Assembly (NCBI GenBank): GCA_964488025.1
Contig: CAZATJ010000002.1
Span: forward strand, 13,840 to 77,839
DNA length: 64,000 nucleotides
Direction of reading: 5' to 3'
Source: an uncultured Bdellovibrionales bacterium
Lineage (GTDB): Bacteria > Patescibacteriota > Minisyncoccia > Moranbacterales > UBA1568
The position numbers were made by a program, and so were the translations under genes. Under the pieces are notes generated by a model, which was not told where the DNA came from, made no database searches, and worked only from the letters and a program-made list of their open reading frames with translations. Shown here in pieces: positions 2,124 to 64,000 of the stretch (the stretch's first letter is position 1; every line of letters starts with the position of its first letter).

Positions 2124-4322
2124 ATGGAATTTCTGGAACAACAAACGAAAGGGTTTTTTTCTTTTTGGAAATGGGAAATCGGCGGAGTGCTGCTTCTTGG
2201 TTTTGTCGTTGTCATGAACCTTTTCCCGAACGGGTATGTCATCATGGGTGGCGATGTCATGCAGAATATCCATTTGAACGAGAATTATAGCAATCTTTTT
2301 TACGAATGGTTCGGGCGCGTTTCGTTTTTTTATCTCCCGTTTTATCTTTTGGATGTGATGGGCGTTTCCGCAACGGCGCAGCTTTCGTGGTATCTCGGCA
2401 TTTTTTTGGTATCGGCATACGTTTCTTTTTTTGTTTTCGGCCGGCTTTTGTTCTCATATGTCCGGGGAGCGCTTCTGGCTTTCGGTAGTCTTTTCTATGC
2501 CACCAATATCTATACGCTGTATATATTCACTTCGACCTGGGGATTTACGTATTATCAGATACTGTATGTTTTCATTCCGGTACTTACCGGTCTGTATATA
2601 CGATCACTGCAGAGTCGGTCGAGGATTTTCTCTCTCGCATTTCTTCTGGTGGTTTTCTTCGCATCGATGAGTTTCAGCAATCCGGCATTCGCTGTTTCTC
2701 TGGGGATGTATTTTATTCTGTTGACTGCCTTTTTATTTATTTTCCGTTTTGTCGTATGGGATAAGCGAGTACTCGGGAAAATAGCTCTTCTCGGTACTCT
2801 GAGCATCGCACTCAATGCATACTGGATGCTACCGGTACTGCCGCAGATGCGTGCCGGGATCGAGGGTGTCGGATCATCGACTGATATCAATTTGCCTGAA
2901 TCGCTGAGGAAGACTTCGAATGCTATTTTCGATACGCTCCGTCTGGTATCGACGTATGAACACGATATGTTTTATCCCTATAATTTTCCCTATCCGCAAA
3001 TCGAATGGCTGCAAAATCCGATTCTTGCGCTCACGTTCGCTCCTTTCTTTCTGATCCTTATTGGGTTTATGTTCATCAAGAAAAATGAGAATGTTCTGCG
3101 TTCTTGGTATCTGGTCTTTTTTGCGCTTCTGGCTGTTTTCACTGCTCTTGTAGCGCACGTCCGATATCCGTTCGATGTATTCAATAATTTTTTCTTCCAG
3201 CTTCCTGGATTCAACGTATTGCGCGGATGGGATAAGATGGCGATATTTACGCCGTTTCTCATCGTAACGCTTTTTTTCATTATGCTTGTTTCTCAGCAAG
3301 GGAAGAAATATTATCGATATCTTCTGGGGAGTTCTTTCGTGCTTGTTGTTTTGCTGGCATTGCCTTTTTATTTCGGTGGCATTCAGACGAAGATGAGCTA
3401 TATCCTGCAGGGGAATGATGAGAAAGACTATCGCGAGTCGCGCTACAGCGCCTTGGTCAAGATACCGGAACCGTACTATGATATCCAGGAAATTTTGAAA
3501 AAGGATACGGCAGATAACAAGATTTCGACGTTGCCTTTTTCGCCCGGATCGAGCGTGGGGCGCGTCGATCTTCCGAAATGGAAAGTCAATGCGCCGCACG
3601 TGATACCGTTTTTGTATCAGAAGAGCTATGTTGAACCGAACCAGCCGTATATCGGCGACCTGCGGTTTGCCAAAGAATATAGCGATATCCACCTGAATCC
3701 GGAAACGATTATCGACGTCTACGGGCTTTTGGGTGTGAAATATATCGTTTACCAGAAAGATGCTGATTCGGAAAGAGTGCAGAAATTTGGGCGCGCGCGG
3801 GCATTTCTCGAAGAAAAATCGGCGATACAGATGATTGCCGATAGCGAATGGATATCGCTGTATACGGTTGATGACAGCCGCGTGTTTCCTTATATGTATG
3901 TCAGCGATGAAGCATTTTCTTTTGATTCGGATCAGGAAAATATGTCTAGTGGAATACGGGCGTTTCAGGAAACCGTTTCACCGGTATCTTACGAACGGAA
4001 AAATCCGAAAGAGATTGTTATTCAGGTGACGACGGATATTTCCAGGAATTCCTTGGTGTATCTCAATGAAAAATATGATACTCTCTGGCAAGCAGTATAT
4101 GTATCCAAAGATGGTAAGAGAGTTTCTCTTGCAAGAGAGGATACTGTCAATTTCGCAAATGCGTGGAAAACTGATTATGTCGCGGCTGGAGGGAAAATAG
4201 AGATATCGCATCGGTCATTCCGGCTTCTGCGTGTGGGGCTTATGATTTCTGGTATAGTGCTTCTGGCTGTCATCTCTTTTTTGATGTATCGTATATTTAC
4301 AAGAAAATATGGAAAAAACTGA
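2124..4322 (+). CDS. large polytopic GT-C-like membrane protein (YfhO-like candidate lipid-linked sugar transferase)
   Basis: 732 aa with more than 10 predicted TM helices in the N-terminal two thirds, a soluble C-terminal domain and a final C-terminal TM helix. It is adjacent to GtrA-like and GtrB-like genes, the architecture of three-component glycosylation systems. Confidence 0.45.
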   Translation: MEFLEQQTKGFFSFWKWEIGGVLLLGFVVVMNLFPNGYVIMGGDVMQNIHLNENYSNLFYEWFGRVSFFYLPFYLLDVMGVSATAQLSWYLGIFLVSAYVSFFVFGRLLFSYVRGALLAFGSLFYATNIYTLYIFTSTWGFTYYQILYVFIPVLTGLYIRSLQSRSRIFSLAFLLVVFFASMSFSNPAFAVSLGMYFILLTAFLFIFRFVVWDKRVLGKIALLGTLSIALNAYWMLPVLPQMRAGIEGVGSSTDINLPESLRKTSNAIFDTLRLVSTYEHDMFYPYNFPYPQIEWLQNPILALTFAPFFLILIGFMFIKKNENVLRSWYLVFFALLAVFTALVAHVRYPFDVFNNFFFQLPGFNVLRGWDKMAIFTPFLIVTLFFIMLVSQQGKKYYRYLLGSSFVLVVLLALPFYFGGIQTKMSYILQGNDEKDYRESRYSALVKIPEPYYDIQEILKKDTADNKISTLPFSPGSSVGRVDLPKWKVNAPHVIPFLYQKSYVEPNQPYIGDLRFAKEYSDIHLNPETIIDVYGLLGVKYIVYQKDADSERVQKFGRARAFLEEKSAIQMIADSEWISLYTVDDSRVFPYMYVSDEAFSFDSDQENMSSGIRAFQETVSPVSYERKNPKEIVIQVTTDISRNSLVYLNEKYDTLWQAVYVSKDGKRVSLAREDTVNFANAWKTDYVAAGGKIEISHRSFRLLRVGLMISGIVLLAVISFLMYRIFTRKYGKN

Positions 4323-4677
4323 TATGAATCATAGCGATATTGACCAAGTAAGGTATTTCCTCAAGACAAGAAAGAAAGATGTCATTTTTCTTGGTATAGG
4401 GCTCTTCATCGGAATCGTGTTGAATTGGGATCTCGCCGAAATTTTTATATTCGAGGTTTTGATTTGGTCTATCCTGGGGCCGATTTCTAGTCAAATCCTG
4501 GCCGGCATAGCTCTTTTTTTCCTTGCATCGACACCGATACTGCTTTTATTTGGGCGCGACGCCCAGGCAGAACAATATGCTGTGTATGCCTACTATTTCC
4601 TGGTAATGGCCGTCATTCGGGGGATTATTGAGGTGAGAGGAAAGAAAAACGATGGTGTAATGGAAAATGAGCCCTAA
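4309..4677 (+). CDS. small multi-TM membrane protein, GtrA-like candidate (flippase component for polyprenyl-P-sugar)
   Basis: 122 aa with 3-4 hydrophobic helices. It overlaps the upstream gene by 14 nt and precedes a GtrB-like GT2. Size and context fit the GtrA family, but no diagnostic motif was seen. Confidence 0.35.
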   Translation: MEKTDMNHSDIDQVRYFLKTRKKDVIFLGIGLFIGIVLNWDLAEIFIFEVLIWSILGPISSQILAGIALFFLASTPILLLFGRDAQAEQYAVYAYYFLVMAVIRGIIEVRGKKNDGVMENEP

Positions 4678-4730
4678 TTTGCCAGTTTTGGCTCTCTGGA
4701 CTAAAATAAAGATACATAATCAATTTCAGT

Positions 4731-5675
4731 ATGAATGAAAATCAGCCGTATTTGTCGGTCGTTGTTCCGTTGTATAACGAAGAAGGAAACGTGAGGGAGC
4801 TCCATCGGAAAATTCGCGAGGCGGTCGAGAAGATTGGACGGCCGTTTGAAATTATTTTCGTGGATGATGGATCCAAAGACGGGACACTCGAGGCGGCCAA
4901 GGGACTGACTCCGCTCAAGCTCATTGCTTTCCGTAAGAACTTTGGTCAGACCGCCGCTTTTGATGCCGGTTTCAAGGCGGCAACGGGGGAAATCATTATT
5001 ACACTTGACGGTGATTTGCAGAACGACCCGGCTGATATCCCGCTTTTGCTTGAGAAAATGGCCGAAGGGTTTGATGTGGTGTCCGGCTGGCGCCATAAGC
5101 GTCAGGACCCGTGGAGTAAAAAGATTCCGTCGCGTATCGCCAACCTGCTCCGCAAGTTTCTCATTCACGATGATATCCATGACTCCGGATGCAGTCTGAA
5201 GGCCTATAAGCGCGAGTGTTTCAAGGACGTGGACTTGTTTGGTGAGATGCATCGCTTCATCCCGGCTATTTTGCAGCTTGATGGCTACCGGGTAGGTGAG
5301 GTGAAAGTGTCGCATCATCCACGCATCCACGGAGTGACCAAATATAATTGGAAGCGTGGCTTCAAAGGACTGGTGGATATGATTTCCATCTGGTTCTGGC
5401 GCAAGTATTCCAATCGACCGCTGCATCTTTTTGGGGCGAGCGGGGTCATCTTGTCCTTTGTCGGTACGGTTATTTTGGTCTGGATGATGATTGAAAAATT
5501 CTACTTCGGCGCCTCTATTTCCGAGCGCCTGTGGCCTCTGGTGGGTATCTTTTTTGTCCTGGTGGGTGTGCAGCTTTTTATTTCCGGTCTCTTGGCCGAT
5601 ATCATGGTACGCAACTACTACCAGGGTCGGGAGCGTATGAATTACAACATAAAACAAATAACAGAAAACAAATAA
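4731..5675 (+). CDS. GT2 family polyprenyl-phosphate glycosyltransferase (GtrB/DPM1/ArnC-like)
   Basis: Motifs: LSVVVPLYNEEGN, VDDGSKDGT, TLDGDLQNDP (DXD), two C-terminal TM helices. The last 10 codons (NYNIKQITENK) and the stop are encoded by the downstream CAAATAACA repeat. Confidence 0.85.
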   Translation: MNENQPYLSVVVPLYNEEGNVRELHRKIREAVEKIGRPFEIIFVDDGSKDGTLEAAKGLTPLKLIAFRKNFGQTAAFDAGFKAATGEIIITLDGDLQNDPADIPLLLEKMAEGFDVVSGWRHKRQDPWSKKIPSRIANLLRKFLIHDDIHDSGCSLKAYKRECFKDVDLFGEMHRFIPAILQLDGYRVGEVKVSHHPRIHGVTKYNWKRGFKGLVDMISIWFWRKYSNRPLHLFGASGVILSFVGTVILVWMMIEKFYFGASISERLWPLVGIFFVLVGVQLFISGLLADIMVRNYYQGRERMNYNIKQITENK

Positions 5676-5724
5676 CAATCAACGAAGAACGGGGAGCAAA
5701 TAACAGACAGCAAATAGCAATCAA
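5654..5724. repeat. four tandem degenerate 14-15-mers CAAATAACAnnnnnn / CAAATAGCAATCAAC immediately 5' of the four-helix-bundle gene
   Basis: Direct reading: caaataacagaaaa, caaataacaatcaac, caaataacagacag, caaatagcaatcaac. Confidence 0.7.
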
Positions 5725-5729
5725 CAGAA

Positions 5730-6089
5730 ATGTCACAAGATGTCTTGAAGGAAAAGATGGACGAGCTTGCTAAGGGCGTATATACCGTCACCAAGGTTTT
5801 TCCTAAGGAGGAAATATATGGGTTAACCTCACAAATACAGCGAGCATCACTGTCGGTTATCCTAAACTATATTGAAGGCTTTGCACGAACGGGGGATAAA
5901 GAATTTAAAAACTTCCTACAGATTTCCTATGGTTCATTAAAGGAAACCCAATATCTTCTTTTCTTTTGTACTCGTGAAGAATATATTAAAAAGGGAGACT
6001 ATGAGAAACTTATGAAGTTGTCAGACGAAATTGGGGCTATGCTTTGGAAAAGAATCAAAACCGTAAAAGAAAAAATCGCTAATAGTTAG
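5730..6089 (+). CDS. four-helix-bundle protein (23S rRNA intervening-sequence protein family, TIGR02436-like)
   Basis: Strong family match: YGLTSQIQRASLSVILNYIEGFAR and FLQISYGSLKETQYLL, the hallmark block of IVS-encoded four-helix-bundle proteins. 119 aa. Confidence 0.85.
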   Translation: MSQDVLKEKMDELAKGVYTVTKVFPKEEIYGLTSQIQRASLSVILNYIEGFARTGDKEFKNFLQISYGSLKETQYLLFFCTREEYIKKGDYEKLMKLSDEIGAMLWKRIKTVKEKIANS

Positions 6090-6112
6090 TTGCTGGTTGT
6101 TTATTGTTAATT

Positions 6113-6121
6113 GTTGATTGT
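6113..6121. repeat. GTTGATTGT, inverted copy of ACAATCAAC (5675-5683 and 5718-5725) flanking the four-helix-bundle gene
   Basis: Seen directly. The reverse complement of 6090-6124 (cataagacaatcaacaattaacaataaacaaccagcaa) mirrors the 5' flank aacaaataacaatcaacgaag. Confidence 0.6.
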
Positions 6122-6124
6122 CTT

Positions 6125-7435
6125 ATGAAAGTCACTTTTCTGGGGACCGGATACGTTGGTCTGGTGTCGGGTGCTTGTATGGCGGAAATCGGCCATGAGG
6201 TCATTTGTGCCGATATTGATAAGAAGAAGATTGCTCTCCTCAAAAAAGGTGGCATTCCGATTTATGAAATCGGTTTGGAAGAAATCGTGGAGCGTAATGT
6301 CAAAGAAGGACGCCTGACCTTTACCACAGATTTGAAAAAGGCTATCGAAGAGTCGGAAGTGGTTTTTATGGCGGTTGGAACCCCGGAAGACAAGGTGACT
6401 GGTCAGGCTGACCTGCAGTACGTGTTTGCGGCGGCGGAGACGTTTGGCAAACACCTGAACGGCTTTAAAGTTTTCGTTGACAAATCAACCGTGCCGGTCG
6501 GAACCGCTGAGAAGGTGGAGGAGATTATTAAGAAGGCATCAAAGGGGAAGCATCCGTTCGAAGTAGTGTCGAATCCGGAATTTTTGCGCGAAGGAGCGGC
6601 GGTGAAAGATTTTTTGAATCCGGATCGCGTGGTGGTGGGAGCGAAATCGGCCAAGGCTAAGAAGCTCATGGAGCAGGTTTATCGCCCGCTTGCTCGTGCC
6701 GGACGACCGATCATGTTTACCGACGTGCGTAGTGCCGAAATCATCAAGTACGCGGCCAACGCGTTTCTTGCCATGAAGATTACCTTTATGAACGAGGTGG
6801 CAAATTTCTGCGATGTCGCTGGAGGCAACGTCAAGGAAGTGGCCAAGGGCCTTGGTTACGACAACCGTATCGGAGGACGGTTCCTGTATGCCGGTATCGG
6901 GTACGGCGGATCGTGTTTCCCTAAGGACGTGAAGGCTTTCATTGAAACGGGGAATGAGTACAATTCTCATTTTCACATCATTGAGACCGTGAGTGAAGTG
7001 AACGAAGCTCAGCGAATCAAGCCATTCGTGAAATTGAAAGAAACGTTCGGCGGGAAATTAAAGAATAAAACCGTTGCCGTGTGGGGACTGGCTTTCAAGC
7101 CGCGTACCGACGACGTGCGGGAGGCACCGGGAATCGAGAACAGCAAGCTTTTTCTCGAAGAGGGTTGCAAGGTACGTGTCTTTGATCCGGTGGCGATGGA
7201 AAATGCCAAGAAAGTGCTTGCACATAAGAACCTGACCTATGCCAAGAAGGCACTGGATACCCTGAAGGGCGCTGATGCTCTGGTGATTTGCACGGAGTGG
7301 GATGAATTTCGAGTGGCGGATTATAAAGATATGAAGAAACTCATGAAGGGTGATTGTATCTATGATGGGCGTAACGTGCTTGAGCGTTCCGAGGCCGAAG
7401 CGAACGGATTTACTTATTATGGCATCGGAGTTTAA
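6125..7435 (+). CDS. ugd: UDP-glucose 6-dehydrogenase
   Basis: N-terminal Rossmann motif MKVTFLGTGYVGLVSG and catalytic GGSCFPKDV Cys motif. An in-frame upstream ATG at 6104 (MLIVDCLM) is supplied by the repeat module. The start at 6125 is favoured by homology. Confidence 0.9.
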   Translation: MKVTFLGTGYVGLVSGACMAEIGHEVICADIDKKKIALLKKGGIPIYEIGLEEIVERNVKEGRLTFTTDLKKAIEESEVVFMAVGTPEDKVTGQADLQYVFAAAETFGKHLNGFKVFVDKSTVPVGTAEKVEEIIKKASKGKHPFEVVSNPEFLREGAAVKDFLNPDRVVVGAKSAKAKKLMEQVYRPLARAGRPIMFTDVRSAEIIKYAANAFLAMKITFMNEVANFCDVAGGNVKEVAKGLGYDNRIGGRFLYAGIGYGGSCFPKDVKAFIETGNEYNSHFHIIETVSEVNEAQRIKPFVKLKETFGGKLKNKTVAVWGLAFKPRTDDVREAPGIENSKLFLEEGCKVRVFDPVAMENAKKVLAHKNLTYAKKALDTLKGADALVICTEWDEFRVADYKDMKKLMKGDCIYDGRNVLERSEAEANGFTYYGIGV

Positions 7436-23017: not shown

Positions 23018-24412
23018 TTGGAACCTGCTTATAGTATAGCATTTTTCGCTCTTTTTTGTGCTATTCTTGGTTATATGGACTTTTTCAGACTGTTAAAGTA
23101 TTCTTTTTTCACGTTTCTTTTTCTACTGCCGCTGCAGACGGTTTTTTTGCTGCGCGAGCCGTTTGTTTTGGGGGAGAAGTGGCAGTATGGAACTATCGGG
23201 GTGTATGTCACTGATGTATTGTTGGTGGTCATGTTAGGCGTAGCCTTGTGTACCTGGTTGAGGAGTATAAAGTATAAAGTATCGAGTATAAAGTACGGGA
23301 GATCTGAAGCGGTACTGGTACTGTTTCTTTTGTGGGCGGGACTGTCGGTTGTGTGGGCGGGGGATCAAGTGTTGGCCTTCTCCTTTTTCATGAAATCACT
23401 CTTGGCGGCGGGTGTGTTCTTTTTGGCCCGATCGTTCGAGGAGGTGAGCGCGAAGAAAGTTATCCTGGTTCTTATGGCGGCTGGAATAATCCAGAGCGGT
23501 ATCGGAATAGGGCAGTTCTTGTTTCAACAATCAGTCGATTCCTCGATTCTCGGAACAAATGCCCACGAGGCCTGGCAAGCGGGCTCTTCCGTGCTTAAAA
23601 TCGACGGAGGGCCAGCCTCGCCGAGTCTAGGCGGGCGGTTTTTACGGGCTTATGGGACATTTCCTCATCCGAATATGCTGGGGGGATTCTTGGCTGTCAC
23701 ACTGGTATTCGGTATCGCGTACCAGGTATTATGCACGGCACGGCTGAAGAAAAACGAAAGAACACTCCTCCTTATTGGTTCAGTGATAGTCTTGCTTGGA
23801 TTGATCCTTACTTTTTCTCGTGTAGCTTGGTTGGGGTCAGGCTTTGGAATAGGGACATTGTTTGTATGGAGTTTTTTTTCAGGTGATACGCGAAAACTAC
23901 GGCCGTTGTTTTCGGGTATGTTCAGTAAAACCTTTTTAGTATTGATTGTGGCTGGATTAGTGTTTGTCACAGTGCTTCATGAACAAGTTTTCCCTCGTTT
24001 TGATGGAGCGACTATCAAACATGAAGGGTCGGTATCGGAACGGGTGCAATCTTTTCAGGATGCCGGTATGGTTATCGGTGAAGGAAATATACTGCTTGGC
24101 ACTGGTGTCGGAAATTTCACGGCAGAAGTCATGAGGCTGGAGCCGGAGCGTCCAGTATGGAGTATTCAGCCGGCGCACAATGTTTTTGTCCTGGTGTTTT
24201 CCGAGCTCGGTCTGGTAGGATTGCTGTTCTTCGTATTGTTTCTGTGGAGCGTGCTCCGAAACATGAAAAAACAAAGCGCGATATTCATTGTCGCGCTTTT
24301 CTCGTTACTTCCCATCCTTCTTCTCGACCACTGGCTGTGGACCTCTCACTTTGGACTTTTGCTTCTTTTTCTTCTCATCGGTCTTGCGATACGCCGAGAG
24401 AGGCAGTCATAA
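23018..24412 (+). CDS. O-antigen ligase/polymerase-like (Wzy_C-like) polytopic membrane protein
   Basis: 464 aa, about 11 TM helices with a central periplasmic loop. No unambiguous catalytic motif, so this is a family-level call. Confidence 0.4.
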   Translation: MEPAYSIAFFALFCAILGYMDFFRLLKYSFFTFLFLLPLQTVFLLREPFVLGEKWQYGTIGVYVTDVLLVVMLGVALCTWLRSIKYKVSSIKYGRSEAVLVLFLLWAGLSVVWAGDQVLAFSFFMKSLLAAGVFFLARSFEEVSAKKVILVLMAAGIIQSGIGIGQFLFQQSVDSSILGTNAHEAWQAGSSVLKIDGGPASPSLGGRFLRAYGTFPHPNMLGGFLAVTLVFGIAYQVLCTARLKKNERTLLLIGSVIVLLGLILTFSRVAWLGSGFGIGTLFVWSFFSGDTRKLRPLFSGMFSKTFLVLIVAGLVFVTVLHEQVFPRFDGATIKHEGSVSERVQSFQDAGMVIGEGNILLGTGVGNFTAEVMRLEPERPVWSIQPAHNVFVLVFSELGLVGLLFFVLFLWSVLRNMKKQSAIFIVALFSLLPILLLDHWLWTSHFGLLLLFLLIGLAIRRERQS

Positions 24413-24541
24413 CGAGTCTTTCCAGCCAAATTCGCTATAGAAAACCCCATTTATCGAATGCTCAATGGCTTGTATGAGGAATTCTCGGCATGATGTTTAT
24501 CTTATTCTTATCACCTATCACTCATCTCCTATCATGACTCT

Positions 24542-50745: not shown

Positions 50746-51474
50746 ATGGAATTGTTTGGTGTCACTATCAGTCAATCCTCTCCCGACGAAGTTTTGGCAC
50801 AAGTCGGGAGTTTTTTAAATGAACCGAAGTTTCATCGTATCGCGACGGTCAATCCGGAATTTCTCGTGTTAGCTGAAAAGAATCCGGAATTCAAACAGGC
50901 GCTCCTTGCTGCTGATCTGTGCGTGGCCGACGGGATTGGTATCGTGCTCGCTGGATGCTTTCAAAGGAAAAGAATCACTCGTTTTCCCGGTGTTGATCTG
51001 CTTCACGAAATTCTCACTCTGGCCGAGCGCGATGGTTACGAGGTGTCCCTTGCTATTCGTAAAGATGGCCTGTCTTCGTACGAAGAGATTCGAGCGGCTC
51101 TTTTGAAAAAATATCCACGCCTTGTAGTCACGGGTAAAGACTATACTGTGCAATCTATCACTTCGCCGTCACTTATCCCTTATCCTGCATCACCTATCAT
51201 TATTTGTAATTTCGGTGCGCCCGATCAAGAACTCTTTCTCGAAAGTATCAGGAATAATTCCGGTGAGGTGCGGTTAGTTCTGGGTGTCGGCGGAGCATTC
51301 GACTACCTGACTGGCAAACAAAAACGCGCCCCCAAGTGGCTGCGTGCGATAGGCCTCGAATGGCTCTGGCGTCTCACCCTCCAGCCCAGACGATGGAAGC
51401 GCATCTGGAACGCAGTGGTTGTTTTTCCTTGGCTCGTCTTTCGTTCTTGGCAGAATGCTAGAAAAAGGTTATAA
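50746..51474 (+). CDS. WecG/TagA/CpsF family (GT26) glycosyltransferase
   Basis: IATVNPEFLV, CVADGIGIV, FLGAPDQE-like NFGAPDQELF, GVGGAFDYLTGKQKRAPKWLR blocks. Confidence 0.8.
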   Translation: MELFGVTISQSSPDEVLAQVGSFLNEPKFHRIATVNPEFLVLAEKNPEFKQALLAADLCVADGIGIVLAGCFQRKRITRFPGVDLLHEILTLAERDGYEVSLAIRKDGLSSYEEIRAALLKKYPRLVVTGKDYTVQSITSPSLIPYPASPIIICNFGAPDQELFLESIRNNSGEVRLVLGVGGAFDYLTGKQKRAPKWLRAIGLEWLWRLTLQPRRWKRIWNAVVVFPWLVFRSWQNARKRL

Positions 51475-54384: not shown

Positions 54385-55152
54385 ATGAGAATGAAGAAAC
54401 AAATACATTCTATACGGACGCGGTTTGCCAAAGATATCGTGGCGGAAATTTTTTTTCCGGAGAAGCAGACTGGTAAGGTAGCAGTACTTGCTATCGGAGC
54501 GCCGTCTGGATCGTCCAAAAAAGAACGATTGCAATTCCTGACAGCTCACGGATATGTGGCTGTTCTTCCGCGTTATCGGGGAACCTGGGAAAGTGATGGG
54601 TGGTTTCTTGAACGGTCACCGGCACAGGATATCCGTGACGTTGTCTCTGAATTGGAAAAGAAAAAGTCTGTCATTGATACTTTGACCGGTAAAAAATTTC
54701 CCGTGAAAGTTTCGGCGGTACATTTGTTCGGTGGATCATTTGGCGGTCCGGCAGTGCTTCTAAATACCGATCTGGCAATCGTGAAGAAAGTGGTTACTCT
54801 TTCCCCTGTCATCGATTGGAGTGTAGAGGGGGAGGATGAACCGATTCACGAGTGGATTCGATATTCTCTCTTGGGATATGGTGGCGCGTATCGTACCAAA
54901 CATACGAGAGATTGGCAGAAACCGGTCAAGACTGATTTTTATAACCCTATCGCACATGTGAATAAAATTGATGGCAAGAAAGTGTTCATTCTTCACGCCA
55001 AAGATGATACCAACGTACCGTGTGACCCGGTCATTCCATTTGCCACAGCAACCGGTGCTTCATACTATCTGAAACCACATGGCGGTCACCGTATCAATTT
55101 TGAGCACGGATTTCTTTGGAAAAAAATTGAGGCGTTTTTGAAAAAGAAGTAG
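54385..55152 (+). CDS. alpha/beta-hydrolase fold protein (peptidase S9/dienelactone-hydrolase-like)
   Basis: HLFGGSFGG nucleophile elbow, Asp/His positions near the C-terminus (HAKDD, HGGH). Confidence 0.6.
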   Translation: MRMKKQIHSIRTRFAKDIVAEIFFPEKQTGKVAVLAIGAPSGSSKKERLQFLTAHGYVAVLPRYRGTWESDGWFLERSPAQDIRDVVSELEKKKSVIDTLTGKKFPVKVSAVHLFGGSFGGPAVLLNTDLAIVKKVVTLSPVIDWSVEGEDEPIHEWIRYSLLGYGGAYRTKHTRDWQKPVKTDFYNPIAHVNKIDGKKVFILHAKDDTNVPCDPVIPFATATGASYYLKPHGGHRINFEHGFLWKKIEAFLKKK

Positions 55153-55179
55153 CTACGTACAGATAGGAAAAAATCTCAT

Positions 55180-55220
55180 GAGACTCCCCTGGCGCTTTTT
55201 ATAAAAAAGAGGGGAGTCTC
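55180..55220 (+). terminator. terminator-like long inverted repeat
   Basis: GAGACTCCCCT ggcgctttttataaaaaag AGGGGAGTCTC (11-bp perfect arms). The inner cccctggcgcttttt resembles a rho-independent terminator. Confidence 0.5.
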
Positions 55221-55764
55221 TCTTCTTATAGAATCAATATAGGCGCATCGGGTATGACCATGGGTATTTTTCTCTAAAATACTACTGGGAGAAATTAAGC
55301 GTACGAATCAACAAATCGGGGAGGCATAGACGTATACCCTTTTTATTCAAATGCCTCAGAAACGATTATAAGCATTCGTTTTTGAAAGAAAAGTGATAAT
55401 CGGTGGAGTCCAAGGTTCATTATCCTAGATTCCTTTCTTTAAGCTCTTTCTTTCTATTCAATGTCTCATAAGTTACATTATGAGACATACGGTAAAATAC
55501 TTCTCTCAAACAAAGCCACGAAATCAGAAGATTTCTCATTGCCAATGTAGAGAGAAACAGATCCGCCCTTCCCTTGTTGTTGGTGACTGCAATATTGGTG
55601 GTCCGATTCTTTTTTGAAAATAAAGAAAGAATATAAAAAAATAAATCAGGATTCATACCCGGAACTTTTCCAGCTCCCCTACTAAAATTCGAATCCGGCA
55701 GTGGATTGGAAAAGAAAAAACAGGTGGGGTTGGATAACCCTCACCTGTCGGTGTCGTTCAAGGC

Positions 55765-56727
55765 CTATTGGCATGGTGGTTTGGGCCTGGGAATGACCTG
55801 AATAGCCCGGGTCGCTCGTGCTTCATCGCCACGCGGATAGTAGGACTGCGCCAGGATGCTGTGGTGACATTCTTTCTCCACTGGACAACGTCCGCAACTT
55901 CGCTGATAGCGTCGTAGCGTTTTGGCGTCATTCCAGTCTTCCGGTTCTTCCTTGATAGACCTGGCACAGCCTTCGCGTGAAAGCATGAAGAGCAGGTCGG
56001 AAAATTCCACGGGATGGACGCCGTAGCGATATCTCAGGTACTGTTCAGCTAATTTGTAACCAGCGACTGAGAGCGGGCGTGGACGCCGGAATGATTCGCT
56101 GGCCAGAATCATTTCCGTACTAAGCATGACTCGCAGGTGATGAAAGTCAACCGGTGGCGAAATGTGAATCAGCGGAATCAGCTGGGCATCCATCAGGAAA
56201 TAAGCGAGCATGGCGCATACTTTTTCCTGGAACATGAAAAATCCTTGCTCCTTGAGTGGTAGCTGATAGTCTTTCTTGTTCACGACCCGTTGGCGAAGTA
56301 TGTCGGCTGTAAGCCGACCCCGGAAGACGTTGAGGATGTCACCACCCCAAGCCATCAGGATTTCGGAGTTACGAAACCAGGCTTCACCGTAGCGTTGTGA
56401 TTTCGGCAGCTTCCCGAAAAGCTTCCCGAGCTTCTCTTCCATGATTTCCGGAGAGAGCGTCACGACGTGGCGGGGATCAAAAAGCTTAGGCTCTTCCCGA
56501 TACAGTTTGACCATCTGGGCCACCGCGTACTCGCTTTTGATCCGTCCCCGCATGAAGTGGCAGAGGTAGAAATAAAAGTTTGGCTTTCGGCGGAGTTCTT
56601 TCGGAATACGTCGTTGCGGCAGTCTGTCCAAATTGGCTTGGGTATAGGGAAATTCCCGCGCCCGGTAGGCCGAAATCAGACGCTCAAAGACCCGATAGGC
56701 CTGAGTAGAGTTGGTAAGGATCGTCAT
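55765..56727 (-). CDS. hypothetical protein with C-terminal Cys cluster (C-x2-C-x5-C plus an upstream Cys)
   Basis: 320 aa. RSCGRCPVEKEC resembles the Fe-S loop of HhH-GPD-type glycosylases, but no HhH motif was found. Low-confidence family. Confidence 0.35.
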   Translation of the reverse strand: MTILTNSTQAYRVFERLISAYRAREFPYTQANLDRLPQRRIPKELRRKPNFYFYLCHFMRGRIKSEYAVAQMVKLYREEPKLFDPRHVVTLSPEIMEEKLGKLFGKLPKSQRYGEAWFRNSEILMAWGGDILNVFRGRLTADILRQRVVNKKDYQLPLKEQGFFMFQEKVCAMLAYFLMDAQLIPLIHISPPVDFHHLRVMLSTEMILASESFRRPRPLSVAGYKLAEQYLRYRYGVHPVEFSDLLFMLSREGCARSIKEEPEDWNDAKTLRRYQRSCGRCPVEKECHHSILAQSYYPRGDEARATRAIQVIPRPKPPCQ

Positions 56728-56888
56728 GAAACTCCCCTTTCGGAAGTGGTTTGATTGCCTTCGAGTATACAGGAAACTAGGCTTTTAGCAAGTGTTTACT
56801 TATATTCGAACATGAAAAAACCGGAAGAGCGCGTGGCGCTTACTTCCGGTTCAAAGGATGTCCAACAACCGACCGTAGACCGGAATCG

Positions 56889-57728
56889 CTACTGGAGCGA
56901 CACCTGGTCTTTGGCGATAGCCACTGTGTTGCGGCCGGCAGCCTTGGCCCCGTACATGGCCATGTCGCTCCGGGTACGCGCCTCCTCGATGGCCTGGTTC
57001 GGATCGTCGGGAAATTGGTCCATGTGGACTCGTGCTACCCCGATGCTCACGGTGACGGTGAGGCCTTTGATGTGAAAATCGTGAGCTTCGACACTGCGTC
57101 TGATCCGTTCGGCCGTCGTCTCCGCTTCTTTGGTCGAAGCATTACTCAGGACGACGACAAATTCATCGCCACCGAAGCGAGCCGGGATGTCATCCTCACG
57201 AACCGCCCCCTTGATGATCTGGGCAATCACGGTGAGTACATTGTCGCCGACGGCATGTCCGTATCTATCGTTCACCGATTTGAACCGGTCTACGTCGATG
57301 AAGAGGATGCTGGTTTCTGGCCAGGCGATCTTCGGGCTGTGAGTCTCCTCACGAACCCGGGCGATGGTTCGGCCCACTTCGTGGGCGTGGCGATGAAAGG
57401 CCCGCTTCAAAGTATTCGGTCGGAGGAGCCCGGTCAGGTCATCGCGCCCCAGTTCCTCGCGGAGTTTTTCCAACTCCTCACTGTGGATTTTTTTGAGCGC
57501 GACCATCCATTCCATCACGTTTGTGGCCTGTTCCTGCAGAAACTGCATCGACTGAGCCATTGACTGAACTATCTCTTCGGATGCCGTAAGCATCTCAAAA
57601 AGATCCTTGTTTCTGGCGCGGAGCAATTGGAGCTCTAGCTCTTTCGGGCAGAGCTCCGGCCAGAGCTTCTCAACGAGTTGTTGCACCGCTTGGCCAATCT
57701 TCTGGCGCAGTGAGACTACTTTCTTCAT
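56889..57728 (-). CDS. GGDEF-domain diguanylate cyclase with N-terminal coiled coil
   Basis: RFGGDEF active-site motif, DVDRFKSVND, RIRRSV inhibitory-site-like RxxD. The start is taken at MKKVVSL (AAAGGGGA RBS). Confidence 0.8.
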   Translation of the reverse strand: MKKVVSLRQKIGQAVQQLVEKLWPELCPKELELQLLRARNKDLFEMLTASEEIVQSMAQSMQFLQEQATNVMEWMVALKKIHSEELEKLREELGRDDLTGLLRPNTLKRAFHRHAHEVGRTIARVREETHSPKIAWPETSILFIDVDRFKSVNDRYGHAVGDNVLTVIAQIIKGAVREDDIPARFGGDEFVVVLSNASTKEAETTAERIRRSVEAHDFHIKGLTVTVSIGVARVHMDQFPDDPNQAIEEARTRSDMAMYGAKAAGRNTVAIAKDQVSLQ

Positions 57729-57957
57729 GGAAATCCCCTTTCTTGGGAGGTTGGATTTTGGACAAGTATTTTCAAGGTACGCTGTCCATGATAGCACAAA
57801 ATATACTTTTTGTCAACCCTGCTTGGCAGGGAATTCTCTGCTACAATGAAAACATGATGAGTGATGCTAGATAGAGAAACAGCATGACTTGCCTCGATTT
57901 TTCTTAGGTATTTCATATCATTTATCCTGTATCACTTATCTCTTATTATCTTCGAAT

Positions 57958-59115
57958 ATGCGCATCTCTTATTCCAGTGTCGGGACGTACCAGACATGTC
58001 CGCTCAAGTATAAATATCAGCACGTTGACCGTATTCCGGAACCAAAATCCAAGGAGGCGGTATTTGGGACGCTCATTCATGCGGTCATGAAGTATATCCA
58101 CACCCCGAGCCTTCTCTCCCCTTCTGTTGATCAAGCGCTCGACTATTTCGCTAAGGGCTGGAACAGTGAAGTGTACGAGGACGAGATGGAAGAGCGCGCC
58201 GCTTTCTCGCAGGGCGTGACCATCATCCAGAATTACCTGGCGCGCAACAAACCCAATGATTTCACTATCGTCGACCTGGAAAGTCGCTTCGCGATCGAAA
58301 TCGGTGATGAGGAGCATGGCAAGCACATCGTCTCTGGTATTATCGACCGAATTGACAAGACAGCCGATGGTTATGAGATTATTGATTACAAGACGACCCG
58401 CAAAATGCCGTCGCAGGACAAAGTCGATAATGATCTCCAGCTTTCCATTTATCTCAAGGCATTTCTCGCTCGCTATCCCAAGGAAGTTGAGCATCTCGAT
58501 AAGATCACGGTCAGTCTCTACTACCTGAAGCATGGCGTGAAACTTTCAAGCGCGCGCACCTTGGAGCAGTTGGAGCGGGTCGATCAGACCTTTCTCGACG
58601 TCATCAAATCGATTGAAGAGGCAAAATTCGAACCCATCCTCTCGCCACTGTGCGATTGGTGCGGGTATCAGAAAATTTGCCCTCTGTGGAAGCATAAATT
58701 TACCGAGACTCACCGGCTCGAAACCGAAGAGGTTAAGACTGCCATCAGCGAATATCTCGATCTGAAAGGTAAGATGAGCGAAGAAAAACAGCACTTGGGA
58801 AAATTGCAGGCACTGATTCTCGAGTATATGGAGCAGGAGGGCGTGGACCGGGTCTTTGACGAACAGGGCATCATCGGAAAGTCGCTTCGCAAGACCTACA
58901 AATACGATGAAGAAAAATTACGAGCTATCCTGGAACCGCTTGATAAGTGGGAATCGATTTTGAAAGTAGACGGCATCGCGCTTCGCACCATCCTCGCTAC
59001 TCTCCCCTCCTCCCTTCAGGAATCGGCTGAAAAAGCGAAAATGCTCGACAAAGAAAGCGTCAGCCTTTCGGTCAAGAAAAACAAAATCGAAGTGGATGAT
59101 GACTTGTCACTTTAA
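57958..59115 (+). CDS. PD-(D/E)XK nuclease superfamily protein, Cas4/RecB-like with Cys4 cluster
   Basis: N-terminal YQTCPLKY Cys, IVDLE / IDRID / EIIDYKT nuclease motifs, C-terminal CDWCGYQKICP (three Cys). Confidence 0.65.
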   Translation: MRISYSSVGTYQTCPLKYKYQHVDRIPEPKSKEAVFGTLIHAVMKYIHTPSLLSPSVDQALDYFAKGWNSEVYEDEMEERAAFSQGVTIIQNYLARNKPNDFTIVDLESRFAIEIGDEEHGKHIVSGIIDRIDKTADGYEIIDYKTTRKMPSQDKVDNDLQLSIYLKAFLARYPKEVEHLDKITVSLYYLKHGVKLSSARTLEQLERVDQTFLDVIKSIEEAKFEPILSPLCDWCGYQKICPLWKHKFTETHRLETEEVKTAISEYLDLKGKMSEEKQHLGKLQALILEYMEQEGVDRVFDEQGIIGKSLRKTYKYDEEKLRAILEPLDKWESILKVDGIALRTILATLPSSLQESAEKAKMLDKESVSLSVKKNKIEVDDDLSL

Positions 59116-59589: not shown

Positions 59590-59618
59590 CCTACCCGAAG
59601 GGCTGTAAATTTTTAACG

Positions 59619-59645
59619 GCTGAGGACATGGGACGAAGTTGGAAC
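59619..59645. repeat. 27-bp array repeat, copy A (GCTGAGGACATGGGACGAAGTTGGAAC)
   Basis: Matches the consensus GCTGAGGCTCTGGGACGAAGTTGGAAC at 24 of 27 positions. Confidence 0.75.
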
Positions 59646-59650
59646 TTTTA

Positions 59651-60193
59651 TTACCTCAGGTTTTTGAAGCAATTCAACCAAGTTGGCCACCAAGGAATTG
59701 AAACAAAAGCAATTATTAAGCTTGTTAAGCTTGTGATGATGAGAATATGTTTTTTTATGTATTCTAATGTTTTATTAGAAGTCTTGTTTTGAATATTTCT
59801 TCCCTCTTCTTTTTGAATACTATTGATTTTTAGGTTTTCAAGCGTTATTGAGTGCCCACTAATTTCTTTGATTTTTCCTGATATCTTAATTTTTGTTTTT
59901 TGGTGTAATGTTTTTAATTCAGGGTTTTCTTCCAGACTGATCGAGCCATAGATGGAAGGGTAAACACCATTGAGATCAACCATAGTCACCCAAAAGAGTT
60001 CATCTTCAGGAGAGGGGTCTTTGTCATACGGAAAGGAGGGATGGTTTTCTTTATATGGATTATACAAACTTCGAAAGAGAACTGTCCATTCACATTGAAG
60101 ACCAATATATCCTTTTTCAGCTTCCTTTTGGAGATATACTGGCATTTTAGAGACAGCATTGATAATCTCAATTGGGTTGGGTTTTATATTCAT
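59651..60193 (-). CDS. hypothetical protein with C-terminal TM helix
   Basis: 180-aa ORF at low GC. No family. Confidence 0.4.
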   Translation of the reverse strand: MNIKPNPIEIINAVSKMPVYLQKEAEKGYIGLQCEWTVLFRSLYNPYKENHPSFPYDKDPSPEDELFWVTMVDLNGVYPSIYGSISLEENPELKTLHQKTKIKISGKIKEISGHSITLENLKINSIQKEEGRNIQNKTSNKTLEYIKKHILIITSLTSLIIAFVSIPWWPTWLNCFKNLR

Positions 60194-60453
60194 AAAAAAA
60201 TACGGCGAAAATATTATGTGCTGGGAAAGAAGGGAGGTCTCGCTGCTCTCCGCCGGTTGGCGGATGCGCTCTATAGGGCTTCCCTGCCCGAAGTGCTACA
60301 TCGTTGCAGGCGGGCGCCCTCTAGCCCGGCAAAGCCGGTCACCTCAAACGGACAAACGGGTGTTTTCCCGACCCCTCTTCTCGTTCGATCCCTTTACCTC
60401 TACAGAATAAAAGAAAATCACCATACCCACAAGGGGCATAGCGATTTTTCTTA

Positions 60454-60480
60454 GCTGAGGCTCTGGGACGAAGTTGGAAC
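60454..60480. repeat. 27-bp array repeat, copy B (consensus)
   Basis: gctgaggctctgggacgaagttggaac. Confidence 0.8.
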
Positions 60481-60503
60481 GTATTTACGGAATCAAGCGG
60501 TTT

Positions 60504-61544: not shown

Positions 61545-61554
61545 AAAACTATGT

Positions 61555-61581
61555 GCTGGGGCTGTGGGACGCTGTTGGAAC
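61555..61581. repeat. 27-bp array repeat, copy C (gctggggctgtgggacgctgttggaac)
   Basis: 23 of 27 match to the consensus. Confidence 0.7.
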
Positions 61582-61595
61582 TTATTTGTCTTATT

Positions 61596-62759: not shown

Positions 62760-62811
62760 ATTTTTTTATATCATAACACAAAAGCACCATTTTAGGTGCT
62801 TAAAAGTCTTA

Positions 62812-62838
62812 GCTGAGGCTCTGGGACGATGTTGGAAC
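62812..62838. repeat. 27-bp array repeat, copy D (gctgaggctctgggacgatgttggaac)
   Basis: 26 of 27 match. Confidence 0.8.
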
Positions 62839-62871
62839 CTATTTATTGCAAGAATTACCCTAATTAAAGCC

Positions 62872-63664: not shown

Positions 63665-63737
63665 GCTGAGGCTCTGGGATTTATCCGCCTCGGGAGGACG
63701 AAGCCCGCCTGAACGATTCATTCGGGCAAGTTGGAAC
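63665..63737. repeat. array repeat, copy E, long form with about 48-bp internal insertion
   Basis: gctgaggctctggga + tttatccgcctcgggaggacgaagcccgcctgaacgattcattcgggca + agttggaac. The insert contains a GCCCG...CGGGC hairpin. Confidence 0.7.
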
Positions 63738-64000
63738 CTATTTTAAGTCCATTAACCAGATTTGACCCTTTTCTCCGTCTGGAGCGATTGCTACCCCAAC
63801 CCTCCTAAATTCGGAGTTGTCATGAAACCCCCAAGAGTCTTGGTGGGTGACTCCACTGAAAAACACCGCTTCTTGGTATCCTTCTTTTTTTGCCTCATCA
63901 ACTTGTAAGTTTCGTAACGCAGTCCCAATTCCTTTTCCTTGATATTTCGCTGCTACCACGTAGAATTCGATGACCTTGTCGGTTTTTGTATACTGCTTCA
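63738..64000 (-). CDS. GNAT family N-acetyltransferase, C-terminal part (N-terminus beyond window end)
   Basis: QGKGIGTAL acetyl-CoA binding motif A. The ORF is open to the window edge. Confidence 0.6.
   Translation of the reverse strand, partial: KQYTKTDKVIEFYVVAAKYQGKGIGTALRNLQVDEAKKEGYQEAVFFSGVTHQDSWGFHDNSEFRRVGVAIAPDGEKGQIWLMDLK

Follow-up and report, generated by a model that had tools for sequence, protein, structure and literature searches.

The window analysed here, a stretch of 64,000 nucleotides of contig CAZATJ010000002.1, contains at 56889-59115 a gene for a GGDEF-domain diguanylate cyclase and, divergent from it, a gene for an iron-sulfur (Fe-S) nuclease of the PD-(D/E)XK type, with clustered TATC-containing boxes between them. 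The reading best supported by the comparison with related genomes, and a probable one, is that these are two independently transcribed chromosomal genes of a Moraniibacteriota (Parcubacteria/CPR) bacterium which have remained neighbours by descent in one large clade, and that the boxes belong to the leader of the nuclease mRNA. Among all features testable here, no evidence was found that the GGDEF protein and the nuclease form a functional signalling-effector unit. The features on which the argument rests are as follows.

56889..57728, minus strand: GGDEF diguanylate cyclase gene, 279 amino acids (Pfam and TIGR profiles, motif reading)
57771..57782, minus strand: GTACCTTRAAA motif where the GGDEF transcript is predicted to begin, just after the -10 element, present in the window and 20 aligned loci
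57788..57816, minus strand: predicted GGDEF promoter, TTGACA, 17 nt, TATCAT, with upstream TG (11 of 12 consensus matches)
57839..57847, plus strand: predicted extended -10 element of the nuclease gene, TGcTACAAT (TGnTACAAT), conserved in the aligned loci
57856..57876, plus strand: 5' arm of the leader hairpin, three inverted heptads GATGAGT, GATGCTA and GATAGAG
57909..57950, plus strand: leader heptad array, 5-6 units (TATTTCA, TATCATT, TATCCTG, TATCACT, TATCTCT, TATTATC)
57923-57940, plus strand: 3' arm of the leader hairpin, boxes 2-4 of the direct array
57958..59115, plus strand: Fe-S PD-(D/E)XK nuclease gene, 385 amino acids, with an AdnA/AddB/Cas4-type domain (1-245) and a clade-specific C-terminal domain (250-385)

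An earlier note had described the two genes and the boxes, and its description stands: a GC-rich GGDEF gene without a sensor domain, a Cas4/RecB-like nuclease of 385 residues with a four-cysteine cluster, a divergent region of about 230 bp (in fact 229 bp, 57729-57957, between the two start codons), box clusters at three sites and a variable accessory gene array beside the nuclease.

Relatives of the nuclease were sought in species-representative genomes, which yielded 197 genome matches; the comparisons use the best 80 of these 197 (loci L001-L080), in which the nuclease is full length and 63-93% identical. The open reading frames (ORFs) of these 80 loci and of the window were clustered for gene order, the intergenic comparison is an alignment of 21 intergenic regions, and repeat scans of related loci covered about 0.9 Mb. 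Five further contigs of the same strain match the window copy and are identical across the intergenic region, so that they add no information. The strain is also carried by the samples ERZ27247828 and ERR3094294. The records behind the nuclease matches are mostly titled Moraniibacteriota/Moranbacteria or Parcubacteria. The title 'uncultured Bdellovibrionales' stands on many records of syntenic loci (L003-L011, L014, L017, L020 and others), but in gene content and order these match Moraniibacteriota, and the label is probably wrong.

The nuclease matches the PDDEXK_1 profile over residues 2-242 (7.6e-39) and carries the RecB motifs IDRID, IIDYK (DYK) and QLSIY (QxxxY) together with four cysteines, C14 and C232-x2-C235-x5-C241. 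Motifs and cysteines alike are invariant in 42 nuclease homologues. The curated Cas4 cut-offs are missed (PF01930, 22.2 versus 22.7 bits; TIGR00372, 42.2 versus 65), the best profile outside Pfam PDDEXK_1 is that of the phage exonucleases of PHROGs (phrog_69, 6.7e-31), and DUF2800 matches residues 3-270 at 7e-7. A Foldseek search with the AlphaFold model (pLDDT, the predicted local distance difference test, 74.6) returned AdnA (1.4e-9) and ACE1 (8e-9), then AddAB, RecB, Dna2, MGME1 and Cas4; for the AddB/AdnA/RecB nuclease fold the E-values range from 1.4e-9 to 6e-6 at probability 1.0. The structure search found neither a structural relative nor a receptor fold for the C-terminal domain of 135 amino acids. 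This domain is present in just 114 of 1.84 billion representative proteins and is confined to this nuclease family, the full-length matches (about 370-490 amino acids) carrying it at the C-terminus and the shorter ones looking like fragments.

Conservation sets the nuclease apart from its neighbours. Over the same loci, its identity to the window copy is 64-93%, against 48-78% for GltX, 43-77% for the M23 peptidase and 51-77% for the alpha/beta hydrolase; it outranks GltX, for example, with 93% versus 59% in L001. At fourfold-degenerate third positions the identity of the nuclease genes is only 0.37-0.46. Because synonymous sites are thus near saturation despite the high protein identity, the nuclease must be under very strong purifying selection, and recent transfer or gene conversion was rejected as the cause of its identity for the same reason. 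The family reaches Portnoybacteria and other Parcubacteria and, as judged from these genomes, is a single-copy core gene of Moraniibacteriota and Parcubacteria, a pattern unlike that of defence effectors. Its role would most likely be housekeeping processing of DNA ends or single-stranded DNA in recombination and repair, or the handling of imported DNA.

In the large clade, the gene order is gltX, M23 peptidase, hydrolase, zero to three variable genes, GGDEF gene (minus), nuclease gene (plus) and further variable genes. Homologues of the two genes do co-occur, as the earlier note had proposed to check, though within a limited clade: an adjacent GGDEF gene is present in 38 of the 80 species loci and in the metagenomic contig L086, always divergent, with a gap of 130-390 bp overall and usually 150-200 bp. 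In a second clade (L046-L080), Rrf2 and cysteine desulfurase (IscS) genes replace the GGDEF gene beside the nuclease, and in further loci hemerythrin, MsrAB or asparagine-synthase genes stand at that place. None of six distant loci with a nuclease orthologue has a GGDEF neighbour. Four of these six (L208-L211, at about 3050-5150) have a gene for a 313-amino-acid Xer-like tyrosine recombinase that ends 1-5 nt before the nuclease on the same strand, the two probably forming an operon. Of these four loci, three have gltX upstream, and all have the L27 and L9 genes downstream. No Xer homologue was found within the window or the Moraniibacteriota loci. On this distribution, the nuclease predates the pairing and works without a GGDEF neighbour.

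The start codon of the nuclease gene is a sharp boundary of conservation, and the region 3' of the gene is variable too. Between L032 (3317-5540) and L033 (3597-5997), whose flanks are 78-82% identical at the DNA level, the stretch from the 3' end of the hydrolase gene to four bases before the nuclease ATG barely aligns; its counterpart in the window is at about 55150-57957. Since this stretch barely aligns between conserved flanks, the GGDEF gene can be said to lie in a hypervariable segment. The same segment of the window holds, between the hydrolase and GGDEF genes, an orphan ORF of 320 amino acids (55765-56727, minus strand; GC content 0.53) with a C-terminal CX2CX5C motif. It has no match in Pfam, NCBIfam, PADLOC, PHROG or PDB and no homologue in the 80 related loci, and was found solely in contigs of this strain. 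In the Rrf2-IscS clade, the Fe-S nuclease gene is divergent from an operon of Rrf2 (IscR-like) and cysteine desulfurase, which is flanked on both sides, the nuclease leader included, by arrays of the octamer AACTTTAT (for example L069, 3543-3584 and about 5950-5995; L078, 3753-3798 and about 5955-5995).

The cyclase is identified by Pfam GGDEF (PF00990; 5.7e-35, 120.9 bits against a cut-off of 23.8) and TIGR00254 (1e-39, 136 bits against 37.4), with a domain spanning residues ~96-272. Its ORF extends over 56889-57797 on the minus strand, and the ATG at 57728 is the most plausible start because the Shine-Dalgarno-like sequence aaagggga precedes it. The A-site GGDEF (residues 186-190) and the I-site REDD (R177-E-D-D180), which the earlier note had marked for checking, are both present, the latter separated by IPARF and hence exactly five residues before GGDEF, as are the metal site DVD (145-147) and the guanine contacts N153 and D162 within NDRYGHAVGD. 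Since the A-, I-, metal and guanine sites are intact, the protein looks like a canonical enzyme specific for guanosine triphosphate (GTP). An RxxD inhibitory site is a common, optional feature of diguanylate cyclases. The GG(D/E)EF, metal and guanine residues are retained in nearly all of 35 positional orthologues, the exceptions being L017, L033 and L034; RxxD, too, is kept by nearly all orthologues.

Pfam and TIGR profile searches revealed no further domain in residues 1-120 of the cyclase. Its N-terminal stretch of ~95 residues is helical, with a high content of E, K, Q and L, which makes a coiled coil plausible; the N-termini of the positional orthologues vary, with a helical stalk and in some a transmembrane helix. 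The gene has a GC content of 0.567 (0.69 at third codon positions), compared with 0.472 for the window. A recent horizontal import, suggested by this high GC content, was rejected, as the GC content is a family trait (in 34 of 36 genomes the orthologue exceeds its own locus in GC content) and conservation extends to the promoter. Identity of the GGDEF protein to the window copy is 27-45% across the related loci. With growing divergence, GGDEF identity drops quickly: it is about 86% where the nuclease is 94% identical and about 44% where the nuclease and the M23 peptidase are 93% and 90% identical, and it levels off near 33% at greater divergence, between genera. The protein is thus very fast evolving and lies within a hypervariable segment. 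A sensor-less, helix-stalked cyclase of this kind would probably make cyclic di-GMP (c-di-GMP) as a dimer and would probably be controlled mainly via its well-conserved promoter.

This promoter holds its position in the 21 aligned loci, and the GTACCTTRAAA motif just behind it could be an operator or an element of the RNA 5' end. On the opposite strand, the conserved extended -10 element of the nuclease gene predicts, by alignment, a transcription start near 57854. As far as promoter prediction goes, each gene has its own conserved promoter, the two being arranged back to back, and the two genes are not an operon. The distance from the nuclease -10 element to the ATG ranges from about 5 nt in L002 and L034, which are apparently leaderless, to about 104 nt in the window, the longest of all. 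The predicted 5' untranslated region (UTR) of the window gene is thus unusually long and has no Shine-Dalgarno sequence, and it is wholly inside this extra leader, some 55-95 nt downstream of the nuclease -10 element and beyond both promoters, that the heptads are located.

The heptads themselves are not the statistically expected pattern of AT-rich DNA. The pattern TATCNNNTATCNNNTATC, with at most one mismatch, has 8 matches in the window versus 0.24 expected, and none of 100 shuffles reached 8. The matches form three clusters, all on the plus strand (24509-24533, 51174-51198 and 57909-57947); the box string quoted in the earlier note maps to 57921-57950. Tandem Repeats Finder reports period-7 arrays at 24509-24534 and 57916-57946, and a strict tandem-repeat scan (at least 75% self-match) misses the TATC arrays, therefore only the 4-nt core is kept between units. 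The sole array that passes the strict scan is a near-perfect heptamer repeat, AGTATAA x 4.6, at 23261-23298 in the coding sequence of a membrane protein (O-antigen ligase-like by reading of the translation), which had no equivalent in 20 Markov controls. The two TATC arrays away from the nuclease are the following.

24495..24534, plus strand: second TATC array, in the gap where a membrane-protein gene and an RtcB-like gene converge (RtcB by reading of the translation)
51167..51200, plus strand: third TATC array, inside a hypervariable loop of the coding sequence of a WecG-family glycosyltransferase

In the nuclease leader, three inverted heptads face the direct array. The two arms are 78% complementary as DNA and more so as RNA when G-U pairs are counted, and the sense RNA folds into an imperfect hairpin of ~85 nt with a minimum free energy of -29.3 kcal/mol (z = -4.6); the antisense of a longer 124-nt stretch gives z = +0.5. 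The window leader has the strongest sense-strand structure of the 78 orthologous upstream regions compared. A structure conserved across orthologues was considered and rejected, as the window copy alone stands out. The heptads are missing in the closest relatives, L001 and L002 (nucleases 93% and 91% identical), where the leaders measure 5-35 nt. A homologous inverted GATA/TATC arrangement is found at the same place in L023, whose nuclease is 78% identical; one of its arms, GATAAGTGATGCAAGATAAAT, is two bases off the reverse complement of the window 3' arm. The ~0.9 Mb of other loci contain 13 TATC-type heptad clusters, 7 of them within ~130 nt upstream of the nuclease start, and several clusters of the Rrf2 clade are explained by promoter-like TTGATAC/TATACT strings.

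The preferred reading of the boxes is a lineage-restricted structured 5' UTR, present only in this lineage and one other species. The direct heptads and their three inverted partners would form a sense-strand hairpin that could affect the stability or translation of the nuclease mRNA in this lineage. The operator arrangement that the earlier note had offered as an alternative is not supported in the form of an operator shared by the two genes: the boxes fall within the predicted nuclease 5' UTR and are absent from the closest relatives. Three other candidates were set aside. The leader is not a multicopy miniature inverted-repeat transposable element, as neither the window nor the ~0.9 Mb of related loci holds a second copy; short-period repeats are not specific to nuclease leaders, being present upstream of other genes too; and a likeness of TTATCC/TATCAC to DnaA boxes, Fur boxes or lambda operators was dropped by eye, the units being direct with period 7 and having no 9-mer or 7-1-7 symmetry. 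Moraniibacteriota intergenic regions often contain G-poor arrays of period 7-9 nt that are specific to one species.

Several observations weigh against the account given so far. The adjacency of GGDEF gene and nuclease persists in L051, L079 and L086 despite a different upstream context, and it survives even in an otherwise hypervariable segment; adjacency or co-regulation may be under some selection, and the C-terminal domain of the nuclease may have a ligand-binding role. With respect to the hairpin, the L023 version is not significantly stable (z = -0.9), and the arrangement is seen in two species only. The other two TATC arrays of the window have no inverted partner, which is more in keeping with a motif for DNA binding or with a mutational process than with an RNA structure.

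The first of these possibilities, a doubtful one, is that the TATC heptads are DNA operators for a ribbon-helix-helix (RHH) protein which, binding cooperatively like omega, represses or roadblocks transcription of the nuclease gene. The omega repressor of plasmid pSM19035 binds 7-10 contiguous WATCACW heptads in either orientation (PMC3074150; PMC9499535). The five contiguous direct heptads and three inverted ones with a period of exactly 7, units such as TATCACT that fit this consensus, the presence of three arrays in 64 kb and the position of 7 of the 13 clusters elsewhere near a nuclease start are all consistent with it. However, exact ATCAC is found in one or two units per array, the others reading TATCAT, TATCCT or TATCTC; the array lies downstream of the conserved -10 element with no promoter overlap and is absent in the closest relatives; some clusters of the Rrf2 clade (clade B) are promoter-like TTGATAC/TATACT sequences; and no RHH-like gene is evident among the window ORFs by inspection, as distinct from a search with hidden Markov models.

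The second, which is likewise not likely, is that the arrays are functionless products of decaying local duplication or slippage in pyrimidine-rich sequence, the hairpin being incidental. Their three unrelated settings (a 5' UTR, a convergent intergenic region and a coding loop) would agree with this, as would the many other short arrays in related genomes, which are poor in G, have a period of 7-9 nt and differ in their unit between species, and the lack of an array in the closest relatives. Unlike fresh slippage repeats, however, the units share the TATC core only. In addition, all three arrays are on the plus strand with a common core of ~20 nt, TTATC-N4-ATCAC-N-YATC, homologous arms stand at the same place in L023 even though its nuclease is just 78% identical, and the fold is strong and strand-specific.

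With the structured leader retained as the preferred reading of the boxes, there remains the relation between the two genes. A coupled pair outside defence, in which c-di-GMP from the neighbouring cyclase controls the nuclease via its orphan C-terminal domain, or in which the shared 229 bp are the target of a regulator responsive to c-di-GMP, is quite improbable. It would tie DNA processing to the signalling state. Divergent adjacency with a constant gap of ~150-200 bp and a conserved promoter architecture in 38 of 80 loci argues for such a coupling, as do the retention of the pair in the three loci with different surroundings and a C-terminal domain that matches no known fold. Against this, the same nuclease with the same C-terminal domain occurs without the GGDEF gene in over half of the species and in all six distant loci, searches of the nuclease turned up neither PilZ nor MshEN nor any other known family or fold of receptor, and no riboswitch was found. 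The neighbouring genes are generally syntenic, so that descent explains the adjacency. The most specific form of this idea is highly improbable: a c-di-GMP-gated DNA-processing unit in one Moraniibacteriota clade, the orphan C-terminal domain being a new c-di-GMP receptor that switches the nuclease, for example between repair and degradation of imported DNA.

The scans for a riboswitch were as follows. Rfam gave no match at the gathering score in the window, and at E <= 10 there were three weak matches to unrelated families within 57600-58100, none of them a c-di-GMP riboswitch (GEMM-I/II). A weak-match Rfam scan of the cassette array downstream of the nuclease gave no c-di-GMP riboswitch either.

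Extremely improbable, finally, is a cyclic-nucleotide defence module with the cyclase as sensor and the nuclease as effector, for which speak weak Cas4 model matches of the nuclease (2e-11), the position of the genes between variable regions and the precedent of GGDEF/mCpol-fold cyclases that act in type III CRISPR (clustered regularly interspaced short palindromic repeats) and Panoptes defence (bioRxiv 10.64898/2026.08.10.743927), and against which stand a nuclease that is core, vertically inherited, hyper-conserved and also found without the GGDEF gene, a cyclase with a canonical housekeeping-type I-site and no defence-model match, divergent genes with separate conserved promoters and no operon, a nuclease in which no sensing domain or fold (SAVED, CARF, STING, PilZ or similar) was found, and a window without cas genes or a CRISPR array. 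In PADLOC, the nuclease receives only weak Cas4 matches and DruK matches, and the cyclase none. No cas genes were found near the nuclease in the window, in the clustered related loci or in the gene tables of further loci, and tandem-repeat and repeat scans of the window detected no CRISPR array. A literature search found no system that combines a GGDEF protein with a Cas4-like nuclease. The signalling-nuclease defence module suggested by the earlier note is therefore unsupported, given the core nuclease, the separate promoters, the lack of a PADLOC match of the cyclase, of a sensor and of a riboswitch. A confirmed module would have added a class to the known second-messenger defence systems; the findings indicate two genes of ordinary kinds, and pursuit as a defence module is not warranted.

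Downstream of the nuclease lies the variable accessory array, none of whose genes has a homologue in the 80 related loci. The array is AT-rich and co-oriented, is transcribed toward the 3' end of the nuclease gene, and encodes hyp180, an LD-carboxypeptidase, a 90-amino-acid ORF, hyp267, a hydrolase, a GNAT acetyltransferase, a NUDIX hydrolase and a HAD hydrolase. Between each consecutive pair of minus-strand genes stands a conserved box of ~33 nt, AAATA(R)GTTCCAAC(W)TCGTCCCAGAGCCTCAGC, with the minus strand as its sense strand. The variable array begins with the first copy, which lies 500 bp past the stop codon of the nuclease gene, and two further copies lie just past the window end. The five copies in the window, and two in L081, are:

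59614-59652, minus strand: cassette box
60449-60487, minus strand: cassette box
61550-61588, minus strand: cassette box
62807-62845, minus strand: cassette box
~63665-63745, minus strand: cassette box
14275 and 14800 of L081: cassette boxes

The same box is found downstream of the nuclease in six other Moraniibacteriota loci (L013, L014, L024, L027, L029 and L035) and in about a dozen metagenomic contigs (including L094, L115, L118, L127, L158, L165, L183, L185, L186 and L195); an exact 17-mer scan of metagenomes gave mostly chance matches, about 14 being genuine after filtering. Many copies have a TATACT -10 element 13-22 nt upstream. These copies are followed by an ATG at 10-30 nt without a Shine-Dalgarno sequence, or by a terminator-like hairpin first, and one copy carries a GC-rich hairpin insertion of 45 nt. 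Some boxes have T-arm-like GGATCGAAC strings downstream; ARAGORN found no tRNA genes or tRNA-derived attachment sites in the array, and the box has no Rfam match. From its arrangement, the box behaves like a 5' leader or small-RNA module common to the genes; it could also be a site of recombination. No evidence was seen that the array depends on the nuclease.

The cumulative GC skew of the window (1-64000) rises steadily to ~56 kb and reaches a plateau from the start of the minus-strand AT-rich array, which may reflect gene orientation, foreign DNA or a nearby replication terminus. Elsewhere in the window, a gene for a four-helix-bundle protein of 119 amino acids (5730-6089) matches Avd of diversity-generating retroelements (phrog_3206, 2.4e-12). 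It is flanked by inverted heptad arrays, G-poor or C-poor, with AACAAAT... on the left (5646-5716) and TTGTTTA... on the right (6085-6126).

The cassette array with its box and the orphan C-terminal domain are more unusual than the gene pair itself. Few proteins of these reduced candidate-phyla genomes are as constrained as the stand-alone Cas4/AddB-type nuclease, which in Moraniibacteriota anchors two hypervariable segments, one of them a box-punctuated cassette array. Of specialist interest are its position directly behind an Xer-like recombinase in other Parcubacteria and its C-terminal domain with an unmatched fold.

Compared with known systems, the likeness to the cyclic-oligonucleotide-based antiphage signalling system (CBASS), type III CRISPR, Pycsar and Panoptes consists in a cyclase gene beside a nuclease gene, whereas the operon, the sensor domain of the nuclease, the patchy distribution and the defence-model match of the cyclase are missing here. 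With the omega (ParB-pSM) iterons of pSM19035, the leader shares contiguous 7-bp repeats, direct and inverted, several of them with ATCAC (PMC3074150), but its array has fewer and more degenerate units and lies downstream of the promoter. It is also chromosomal and not part of a plasmid partition or copy-control locus, and no cognate RHH gene was identified.

The cyclase shares with the catalytic domain of the PleD/WspR/DgcZ type the GGDEF A-site, the RxxD and DxD motifs and the N/D contacts. In contrast to that type, it has no receiver, PAS, GAF or other sensor domain, its wide-turn segment after DxLTGL is altered (LLRPNTLKRAF instead of LxNRRxF), and its sequence turnover is very fast, with ~33% identity between genera. 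The nuclease has its fold, the RecB motifs and the iron-staple cysteines (C...CX2CX5C) in common with AdnA/AdnB, AddB, Cas4 and the Argonaute-associated Cas4-family nuclease ACE1. Unlike AddB, AdnA and RecB, it stands alone with 385 amino acids and without a superfamily-1 helicase or helicase-like domain; unlike Cas4 and ACE1, it has no cas or Argonaute genes beside it. The additional C-terminal domain of 135 amino acids is a further difference from all of these. It resembles the phage Cas4-like exonucleases (PHROG 69, DUF2800) in its profile but differs from them in being chromosomal, syntenic and core in Parcubacteria, where it is found beside gltX or, in other lineages, beside the genes for L27 and L9.

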